DNA of 64,000 nt from Escherichia coli (GTDB lineage Bacteria > Pseudomonadota > Gammaproteobacteria > Enterobacterales > Enterobacteriaceae), in assembly GCF_003018255.1 (NCBI RefSeq), contig NZ_CP027440.1; one strand, given 5' to 3'. Both the position numbers and the translations under genes were made by a program. The notes under the pieces were generated by a model. It was not told the origin of the DNA. It did not search any database and saw only the letters and a list, made by a program, of their open reading frames with translations. This document shows, piece after piece, positions 33,286 to 36,145 of the stretch (position 1 is its first letter; every line of letters starts with the position of its first letter).

Positions 33286-33765
33286 TTACCACTTATCTAA
33301 TTCATTAAAGCCTTTTGCCTGTAGAGCTTCAACTAATGATAAGCCATCAGGAAATAGCAATTCCGGCGCAATTTCAAACAGTGGCCACAGCATAAAGCCG
33401 CGATTTTTCATATCGTAGTGCGGAACGGTCAGACGTTCGGTATTTATTACTTCATTACCAAACAGCATGATGTCGAGATCCAGCGTGCGCGGTCCCCAGC
33501 GTTCAGCTTTACGGACGCGACCTTGCTGCAATTCGATACGCTGTGTGTGATTGAGTAGCTCTTCAGGGGCAAGAGTGGTTTTCAGCGCGACGGCTGCATT
33601 TAAGTAATCGGGTTGATCTTGCGGCCCCAGCGGTGGGGTGCGGTAAAACGAAGAAACAGCAAGAATGCGGCTTTCTGGAATATCGCCTAATGCTTTCAGG
33701 GCAGCATTGACCTGCTCCAGCGGAGAGGCCAGATTGCTGCCGATGGCAATATACGCCACTGTCAT
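33286..33765 (-). CDS. folK: 2-amino-4-hydroxy-6-hydroxymethyldihydropteridine pyrophosphokinase
   Basis: [61 protein letters not shown]... Confidence 0.95.
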
Positions 33766-35159
33766 GCGGTACCCTCACGACGCGGTGCGCGTTTGCGTGG
33801 ACGACGAGTACGGCGACGCGGTGACGGTTCTTCATCCAGTTCGTTAAGCATCCCTTTTTGGTCTGGTGGCGCGGAAACCTGGAACTCACCCCACCATTTC
33901 ACCAGACGTTGCAGTTCAGCGTTACGCTCAACTTCGGCTCGTAAGGCCAACAGGTCGTATGCCGCACGGAACTTAGGATGCTCCAGCAGTTTCCAGGCGC
34001 GTTTACCCTGACGTCGGGACATACGCAACTGCAACTGCCAGATATCGCGGGTTAACGTCGTCAGACGTTTCGGGATCGCCAGTGAACGACAGGCTTCGTC
34101 CAGCACGTCGTTCATCGCCAGCGCGAAAGCGTCGTGATAGGTCAGGCCGCTTTCCTGGGCGATCTTCTGTGCCGTCTCCAGCAGTGGGTACCAGAACATG
34201 GCGGCAAACAGGAACGCCGGGTTCACGCGCATATCGTTATGGATACGCGTATCGGTATTCTTCAGCACCTGTTCAATGATCCGCTCCATCGGGCTGTCGC
34301 CATTTTCCGTGAAGTAGCGGGTAATGGTCGGGAACAGCGGCTGGAACAGGTGATATTCACACAGCAGCTTATAGGTTTCGTAACCGTAGCCCGCTTGCAG
34401 CAGTTTCAAAGATTCTTCAAACAGACGTGCCGGTGGAATATCGTTCAGCAGGGTAGCCAGGCGAGGGATCGGTTCTGCGGTTTCAGGACTGATACGCATA
34501 CCCAATTTGGCGGCAAAACGTACCGCGCGCAGCATCCGTACCGGATCTTCACGGTAGCGCGTTTCCGGGTTACCAATCAGACGGATAACGCCGTCCTTCA
34601 GATCCTTCATGCCGCCAACGTAATCACGGACGGTAAAATCTGCCACGCTGTAATACAGGCTGTTGATAGTGAAATCGCGGCGCTGGGCGTCTTCTTCGAT
34701 GGAGCCGAAAATGTTGTCGCGCAGCAACATGCCGTTTTGCCCGCGTTGGGAGGTCGTGCGGTCGCTGACGTTACCTTCGTGATGTCCACGGAAGGTCGCA
34801 ACTTCGATAATCTCCGGGCCAAACATCACATGAGCCAGACGGAAACGGCGACCCACCAGGCGGCAGTTACGGAACAGTTTACGTACCTGTTCAGGCGTGG
34901 CGTTAGTGGTTACGTCAAAATCTTTCGGCTTTTTGCCAAGTAACAGGTCGCGCACGCCACCGCCAACCAGCCAGGCTTCGTATCCCGCTTTATTGAGCCT
35001 GTACATTACCTTCAGGGCATTTTCACTGATATCTTTGCGGGAAATAGCATGCTGCTCACGCGGGATCACCGTCACCTGTGGACGGGCGACTGCCTGTTCA
35101 GCCTCGCTTTCCTCGCGGCTTAGCACCTTGCGGCAAAAATTAGCGACTCGGGTAAAAAT
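33762..35159 (-). CDS. pcnB: poly(A) polymerase I
   Basis: translation (I->M)[42 protein letters not shown]...; no in-frame ATG at the N-terminus, start assigned to ATT at 35159-35157 following the known non-canonical AUU initiation of pcnB; 4-bp overlap with folK. Confidence 0.88.
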
Positions 35160-35218
35160 AGTACACCTCGGTAGTGTCAAACATCATTCAGGACAAAAAA
35201 ATAGCGGCTAATCATAGC

Positions 35219-36145
35219 TCAGCATGACGCATTTGAGAATGTTGAATTTACAATTGCCGACTCAGGCACGGCGGTAAGCCGCCAGTTTTTGACGGCTGAC
35301 TGAAGGATTTGCTCGACGCTGAAATCCTGCCAGTGTGCTTCTGCCTGCTGACCCAGAAATTGAAGTGCCGCGATTAGTACCGGGCGCGGATCGCCTTTCG
35401 GCAACGCAGGCGCATGATTCTGCTTGGAAAGTTTAGCGCCTTGTGTGTTAAGCGCCAGCGGTAAATGAATGTAATCTGGCACTTTCCAGCCAAAAAGCTG
35501 GTACAGCGAGATTTGCCGCACTGTCGGTTCGATCAAATCTGCCCCGCGGACAATTTCGCTCACGCCCTGGAAGTGATCATCCACCACCACCGCCAGGTTA
35601 TAGGCAAACAAACCATCACGGCGATGAATAATAAAATCTTCCCGCGCCAGTTTTTCGTTGGCGTGAATAATGCCGCGCAGCTGATCAGTAAATAGCGTGA
35701 CCGGATGCTGCTGGCGGATACGTACTGCGGCGTTGTCTGGTCCATGATGCAATTCCCGGCAATGACCGTCGTAAATACCGCCAATGCTTTGAATACGCGC
35801 GCGCGTGCAGGTGCAGTAATAACTTAGTCCTTGCTCATGTAACCAGGCGAGTGCTTCGCGATAGGCATCGTGACGTTGCGATTGCCAGAGAACGTCGCCG
35901 TCCCAGTGCAGACCGTAATGTTCCAGCTGGCGCAGGATAGTCTCTGCGGCACCGGGAACTTCACGAGGCGGGTCGATATCTTCAATGCGTACCAGCCAGC
36001 GACCTTGCCGGGCGCGAGCCTGTAAATAGCTGCCAAGCGCGGCAATCAGAGAGCCAAAATGAAGCTCGCCGGAAGGAGAGGGGGCAAAGCGGCCAATATA
36101 GTGTGTGTCTGTCATCTCGTTGAACAAAAAATAAGGCGGGAGCAT
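35219..36145 (-). CDS. gluQ: glutamyl-Q tRNA(Asp) synthetase
   Basis: [33 protein letters not shown]... (class I aaRS HIGH-like motif); formerly yadB. Confidence 0.9.

Follow-up and report, generated by a model that had tools for sequence, protein, structure and literature searches.

Poly(A) polymerase I (PAP I) of Escherichia coli is encoded by pcnB, whose translation begins at AUU, a start that limits PAP I synthesis (PMC2939334, PMC3561954, PMC9764084, PMC5499595, PMC4245954, bioRxiv 10.1101/063800). Papers on this start credit Binns & Masters (2002, Mol Microbiol 44:1287; cited in PMC2939334, PMC3561954, PMC9764084), who, as related in the same citing papers, showed AUU initiation experimentally and obtained more expression with AUG. 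PAP I is present at 30-50 molecules per cell (PMC3561954) and is toxic in excess (PMC2939334, PMC3561954). Only pcnB and infC are confirmed AUU starts in E. coli (bioRxiv 10.1101/063800, PMC5499595, PMC4245954), and the discrimination of IF3 against the infC start is established (PMC5499595).

Here, I show how the pcnB locus found on the minus strand of a 64,000-nucleotide stretch of E. coli DNA (contig NZ_CP027440.1; hereafter the window) compares with this picture. With a probability of about 0.93, the gene starts at the non-canonical AUU that is well known from pcnB of E. coli. The original prediction had placed the start at the ATT 35159-35157, an assignment now supported by the curated K-12 record, the PGAP annotation, the literature, and the comparative and Shine-Dalgarno (SD) analyses; its further claim that AUU keeps poly(A) polymerase levels low agrees with what the papers cited above report. 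The AUU start of pcnB is thus already known, being both published and database-curated, and nothing here changes that picture; the modest detail added is that the family shows no variation in the exact triplet, the SD and their spacing, all of which are also kept in a reduced genome (L086, see below).

The coordinates given in the original prediction for the upstream TTG and for the ATT are all correct on the minus strand, and the pcnB frame is indeed open as far as that TTG, being bounded upstream by the TGA 35186-35184, with the TTG two codons on (features in Table 1). Read from the TTG, the open reading frame (33762..35180, minus strand) encodes 472 aa; read from the ATT, 465 aa. Between the two codons the frame reads ACA CTA CCG AGG TGT ACT, and after the ATT it continues as TTT ACC CGA GTC GCT AAT TTT TGC CGC AAG GTG CTA, the beginning of the 465-aa PcnB of E. 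coli. The statement that no ATG or GTG lies in frame nearby stands for ATG, the earliest being codon 52 (35006-35004), and fails for GTG, which occurs at codon 12, 33 nt 3' of the ATT, as well as at codons 29 and 31 (35075 and 35069). The overlooked GTG12 matters as a rival start because many automatic callers choose it. A run of about 18 codons devoid of ATG and GTG is in itself not improbable; the case for the ATT rests on conservation.

Table 1. Features at and around the pcnB start, in positions of the window.
Feature	Coordinates	Strand	Basis or remark
pcnB CDS, poly(A) polymerase I, 465 codons + stop, ATT start	33762..35159	-	ORF listing, K-12/PGAP, NF008634
ATT (AUU) initiation codon	35157..35159	-	sequence, annotation, conservation
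Shine-Dalgarno GAGGTG	35164..35169	-	followed by 4-nt spacer TACT, 35163-35160
Upstream in-frame TTG, rival start, 472 aa	35178..35180	-	ORF listing
In-frame GTG, codon 12, rival start, 454 aa, within SD-like AAGGTG	35124..35126	-	sequence
Codons 1-18, conserved N-terminal peptide	35106..35159	-	80-species comparison
Codons 19-28, hypervariable linker from N-terminal peptide to catalytic domain	35076..35105	-	amino-acid entropy
Codons 34-46, the other block in which synonymous diversity is very low	35022..35060	-	invariant core CGC AAA GAT, 35031-35039
Sigma-70 promoter-like site, TTCTCA-17 nt-TATGAT	35211..35239	-	consensus scan

Annotation and protein families agree on both the identity of the gene and its first residue. 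The comparison with the curated K-12 start that had been called for gives the same ATT: in NC_000913.3, b0143 (157729..159126, 1398 nt) has it as first codon, and in an identical E. coli genome PGAP calls the same 1398-nt pcnB CDS, ATT first. The NCBIfam equivalog NF008634 matches the PcnB of the window with 997.1 bits (cut-off 702), residues 1-464 corresponding to profile positions 1-468 of 469, with profile position 1 aligned to the ATT-encoded residue 1; the pcnB model TIGR01942 scores 523 bits (cut-off 305.65). The domains PolyA_pol (PF01743), PolyA_pol_RNAbd (PF12627) and PolyA_pol_arg_C (PF12626) are all present, according to precomputed matches, in a 100%-identical 465-aa database protein (P0002). 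The PDB entries 3AQK-3AQN, named 'Poly(A) polymerase', cover PcnB residues 28/29-442, the crystal constructs beginning at 28/29. The gene order gluQ - pcnB - folK is common to the window, K-12 and PGAP annotations, and is also found at two of the distant loci described below (L084 and L087).

The comparative set comprised the pcnB loci of 80 Enterobacteriaceae species, at 86-100% protein identity. The codon aligned to the start is ATT in 80/80 species, and GAGGTG occupies positions -10 to -5 in 80/80. Upstream of the ATT the nearest in-frame stop lies anywhere between -15 and -177, and positions -1 to -4 vary with no codon periodicity, the codon preceding the ATT being one that would encode T, N, I, A or P. 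Downstream, codons 2-11 are invariant at the amino-acid level, their sole five variable nucleotides being all synonymous third positions. Since codons 2-11 vary only synonymously and positions -1 to -4 lack periodicity, protein-coding constraint begins at the ATT; the conserved coding sequence reaches 11 codons 5' of GTG12, the first canonical codon after the ATT, and no canonical start accounts for the conserved N-terminal residues across species. Of the 19 conserved Ile columns of pcnB, 18 mix ATT and ATC, codon 1 alone being fixed as ATT; the start triplet is selected as a triplet and not as an Ile codon. The N-terminus of PAP I may be processed, and purified enzyme is reported to lack its first residues. 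Further into the protein, codons 19-28 show an amino-acid entropy of 1.4-1.6 bits versus <0.2 elsewhere; a propeptide and a disordered, poorly conserved region of PcnB have been described (PMC12140428).

Within E. coli, 5424 of 5426 complete genomes contain the 501 nt around the start, many chromosomes with 100% identity. No difference is seen in the 61-nt start region of 5416 of these 5424, the one variant that was inspected differing at -2 only, and none of the 5426 genomes has ATG at the pcnB start codon.

For every in-frame candidate, the pairing energy of the preceding 20 nt with the 16S 3' end was calculated. The strongest SD pairing of all is that of the ATT, at -9.8 kcal/mol (GAGGUG, 6 bp, 4-nt spacer, with the GAGG core 6 nt away), followed by GTG29 (35075; -4.5 kcal/mol), ATG52 (35006; -4.0), the TTG at 35180 (-2.3) and GTG12 at 35126 (-0.1). 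In an identical genome (L090) the pcnB SD ranks as the 6th strongest of 47 annotated neighbouring genes, whose median is -5.7 kcal/mol. The pcnB ribosome binding site has been called 'poor' (PMC3561954, PMC9764084), a quality that is not reproduced by the pairing energy. Other nearby non-ATG genes, namely fhuB (GTG), panC (GTG) and speD (TTG), are also among those with the strongest SDs. This suggests that weak start codons are compensated by strong SDs.

Distant orthologues were taken, with their DNA, as representatives from a 50%-identity library. The arrangement GAGGTG-N4-ATT is kept in an orthologue at 67% identity to E. coli PcnB (L084) and in another at 62% from a 1.08-Mb genome (L086), for which the NCBI start is ATT; at 55% (L085) the sequence reads GAGGAT...ATT ATT. 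Lower in the series, an orthologue at 54% identity (L087) has ATC at the aligned position, with the in-frame N-terminal peptide IRRVIELCKKVIG and no canonical start; at 53% (L089) an ATG stands directly before ATT TTC; and at 52% (L088) there is a plain ATG with no N-terminal peptide. The sites of the two variants lie some 70-85 nt upstream of the ATG called at 1001 in L087 and at 76-84 in L089. The ATC of the former and the ATG ATT TTC of the latter are natural start-codon variants within one conserved N-terminal peptide, and this peptide can still be recognised at 54-67% identity, its replacements there being conservative. Because it is kept at 67% and 62% identity, and ATG is used at 52-53%, the non-canonical start of pcnB is old but lineage-restricted, which is consistent with the AUU that, according to a remark in PMC3561954, Binns & Masters saw in many Proteobacteria.

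Two other codons of the frame compete with the ATT in databases, and the sequence of the window by itself forbids neither. Were translation to begin at the upstream TTG, the ATT would simply encode an internal Ile; the window has this TTG in a frame that stays open from the TGA 35186 on, many database entries are 472 aa long, among them the main Salmonella enterica cluster with ATG at the same -21, and UUG is named as the pcnB start codon in the introduction of one paper (PMC3561954), a mention that reflects an older annotation. Yet the TTG is not preceded by an SD, only 26/80 species share the TTG that the window has at -21, and in 43/80 no ATG, GTG or TTG occurs in frame from the upstream stop to the ATT, the stop falling in many species between -15 and -27. 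Moreover, the seven added codons bear no protein constraint: outside positions -3 to -1, which encode T, N, I, A or P, they consist of the SD itself. An Ile codon of the usual kind would alternate between ATT and ATC, as the other 18 columns do; curated annotation and literature likewise put the start at the ATT, and initiation at the TTG is regarded as very improbable. The same holds, to the same degree, for GTG12, from which a 454-aa protein beginning MLSREE would be made, the sequence 5' of it becoming an untranslated leader. It is the first in-frame canonical codon 3' of the ATT, it is GTG in 80/80 species despite Val being 4-fold degenerate, and automatic callers settle on it, as in P0003 and numerous entries of 454 aa; against it stand its negligible SD pairing, the literature that has AUU as the start, and an NF008634 profile that takes in residues 5' of it. 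It would also drop 11 constrained codons, those from 2 to 11 being amino-acid invariant with changes at synonymous third positions only, and the peptide they belong to, recognisable through conservative replacements at 54-67% identity, bears a coding signature.

A shorter PAP I isoform might also be made besides the one initiated at AUU, either from ATG52, by way of the internal sigma-S promoter pS1, or from codon 29. This reading builds on a report of pS1, located 3' of the ATT and active with sigma-S, and of two bands in anti-PAP I Western blots, for which an AUG-initiated truncated form was speculated (PMC2939334); in addition, 73/80 species have ATG as codon 29, though E. coli has GTG. However, in none of the 80 species does an SD precede codon 29 (median pairing -1.5 kcal/mol, every value being above -7), the pairing before ATG52 is weak and only 2-3 nt from the codon, a scan of 34940-35160 for a sigma-70-type promoter corresponding to pS1 found none, and the truncated form is unproven according to its own authors (PMC2939334). 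Such an isoform is therefore considered improbable, if less so than either of the two rival starts. Codon 29 as an internal start (35073-35075; ATG in 73/80, GTG in Escherichia, ATT in 3) was rejected, no species having an SD there. Another candidate set aside is an out-of-frame uORF of 15 codons (35140-35187, minus strand), which opens with a tandem ATG ATG at 35187, crosses the ATT and ends at the TAA within GCT AAT; it has no SD, its position is not conserved across species, and it is probably due to chance.

The initiation region of pcnB is peculiar also at the codon level. Among the 80 species, 7 of the 12 amino-acid-invariant degenerate columns of codons 1-12 have an invariant codon, versus 6/264 in the remainder of pcnB (Fisher p = 5.5e-8, to be taken as indicative only, the species being related). 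The invariant codons are 1, 2, 4, 5, 7, 9, 12, 41-43 and only three others gene-wide, so that the adjacent codons 41-43, CGC AAA GAT, make up 3 of the 6 outside codons 1-12. Synonymous codon entropy is 0.15-0.38 in the blocks 35124-35159 and 35022-35060 versus a gene mean of 0.95, and the rest of pcnB is almost saturated at synonymous sites. Such blocks might betray an undescribed cis-acting element of the initiation region beyond the SD and the AUU, a reading that I hold to be rather unlikely and that, if true, could tune the efficiency with which the weak AUU is used. The blocks could reflect an mRNA structure, a site bound by a protein or an sRNA, an element for standby or pausing (AAGGUG of codons 11-12), pS1, or the requirements of AUU initiation. 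The hexamer AAGGTG (35124-35129), SD-like and internal to the coding region, includes the invariant GTG12; SD-like pause sites in pcnB are mentioned in PMC3561954, and the hexamer could serve for pausing or standby and not as a start.

As for mRNA structure, RNAalifold gives a candidate 13-bp helix between codons 5-9 and codons 41-46 (-10.4 kcal/mol), which is 99.8% paired; both of its arms being invariant, it yields no covariation information. In the two distant orthologues L084 and L086, as read manually, about three of its pairs are broken in each with no compensatory change, and the long-range helix is thus an unsupported candidate. A local hairpin of codons 5-19, taken from the minimum free energy fold of E. 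coli, was likewise discarded, its outer stem being broken in 29-33 of 75 sequences and shuffled sequences scoring equally. The leader shows no unusual structure, folding no more than shuffled sequence (z = +0.83); an Rfam scan of 34700-35600 returned no family at E<=1, and a search of the published literature for sRNA regulation of the pcnB mRNA found nothing.

Upstream of the gene, the consensus scan returned one sigma-70 promoter-like site, versus 0.3 expected, which overlaps the gluQ stop (35219-35221). As GAGCTATGATTAGCCGCTATTTTTTTGTCC around this site is conserved in many genera while the flanks vary, it probably corresponds to pB, which has been published as the major promoter of pcnB and lies 5' of the ATT (PMC2939334). 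The TAAACT that forms the -10 element of the sigma-S promoter pS2 was found at 35430-35435, which fits the start sites reported 263-265 nt upstream of the ATT (PMC2939334). The start of gluQ itself is annotated in two ways: in curated K-12 it is the ATG 36145 (minus strand; 927 nt, 308 aa, MLPPYFLF...), and in PGAP it lies at 36115 (minus strand), 10 codons later (897 nt, MTDT...), the latter having the weakest SD pairing of the 47 neighbouring genes (-1.8 kcal/mol).

Public collections hold four N-termini for this one gene (P0002, P0003, P0013, P0105): 465 aa from the ATT (P0002), 472 aa from the upstream TTG or, in Salmonella, an ATG (P0013), 454 aa from GTG12 (P0003), and 447 aa from ATG19. 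The ATT is used by NCBI/PGAP entries only, and the gene callers applied to metagenomes fall back on GTG12 or ATG19. In Salmonella (L022 diarizonae, L023 arizonae) an in-frame ATG stands at -21, where E. coli has TTG, and the main cluster of Salmonella PcnB, with 2921 members, has its 472 aa annotated from that codon. GAGGTG-N4-ATT is intact there and no SD precedes the -21 ATG; the annotated pcnB start may be wrong in Salmonella. The gene is a classic example of how ORF finders limited to ATG, GTG and TTG give a wrong N-terminus, and the relevance of the locus lies mainly in annotation quality. A literature search for published TIS-profiling results on pcnB found only reference-list mentions.

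The codon, the SD, their spacing, the invariance of these in 80 species and the coding constraint from the ATT onwards are direct observations of this analysis; the AUU initiation they point to would, in the best-supported account, which is the one already published, run as follows. The GAGGUG would recruit the 30S subunit through its 6 bp with the 16S 3' end, and the 4-nt spacer would put the AUU into the P site, where the initiator tRNA would read it poorly, with a third-position mismatch, the protein thus beginning with fMet and not with Ile. AUU being a poor initiation codon against which IF3 discriminates, few initiation events would succeed and, because of this, PAP I would be scarce; by analogy with infC, I infer that in the particular case of pcnB it may be discrimination by IF3 that sets the limit. 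Along with other controls, the AUU start holds PAP I down to a few dozen molecules in each cell.

Among known systems, pcnB of K-12 (b0143) is the same gene, with leader, SD, ATT and first codons identical to those of the window, and with the same CDS length, synteny and family; nothing relevant to the start differs, the lineage of the window being non-K-12 and 100% identical to, e.g., NZ_CP029164. A rare ATT start that also attenuates expression is described for ebpA of Enterococcus faecalis (PMC4447247), although gene, organism and protein are unrelated. In infC of E. coli, as in pcnB, an AUU start holds expression down. The two differ in that infC, which encodes IF3, is autoregulated, its product being the discriminator itself, whereas pcnB does not encode IF3, so that any IF3 dependence would make pcnB a passive reporter of IF3 activity and not a feedback loop. 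They differ also in breadth, since infC has AUU, AUC or AUA in essentially all bacteria (PMC5499595), whereas the non-canonical start of pcnB is lineage-restricted, as the ATG of the orthologues at 52-53% identity shows.
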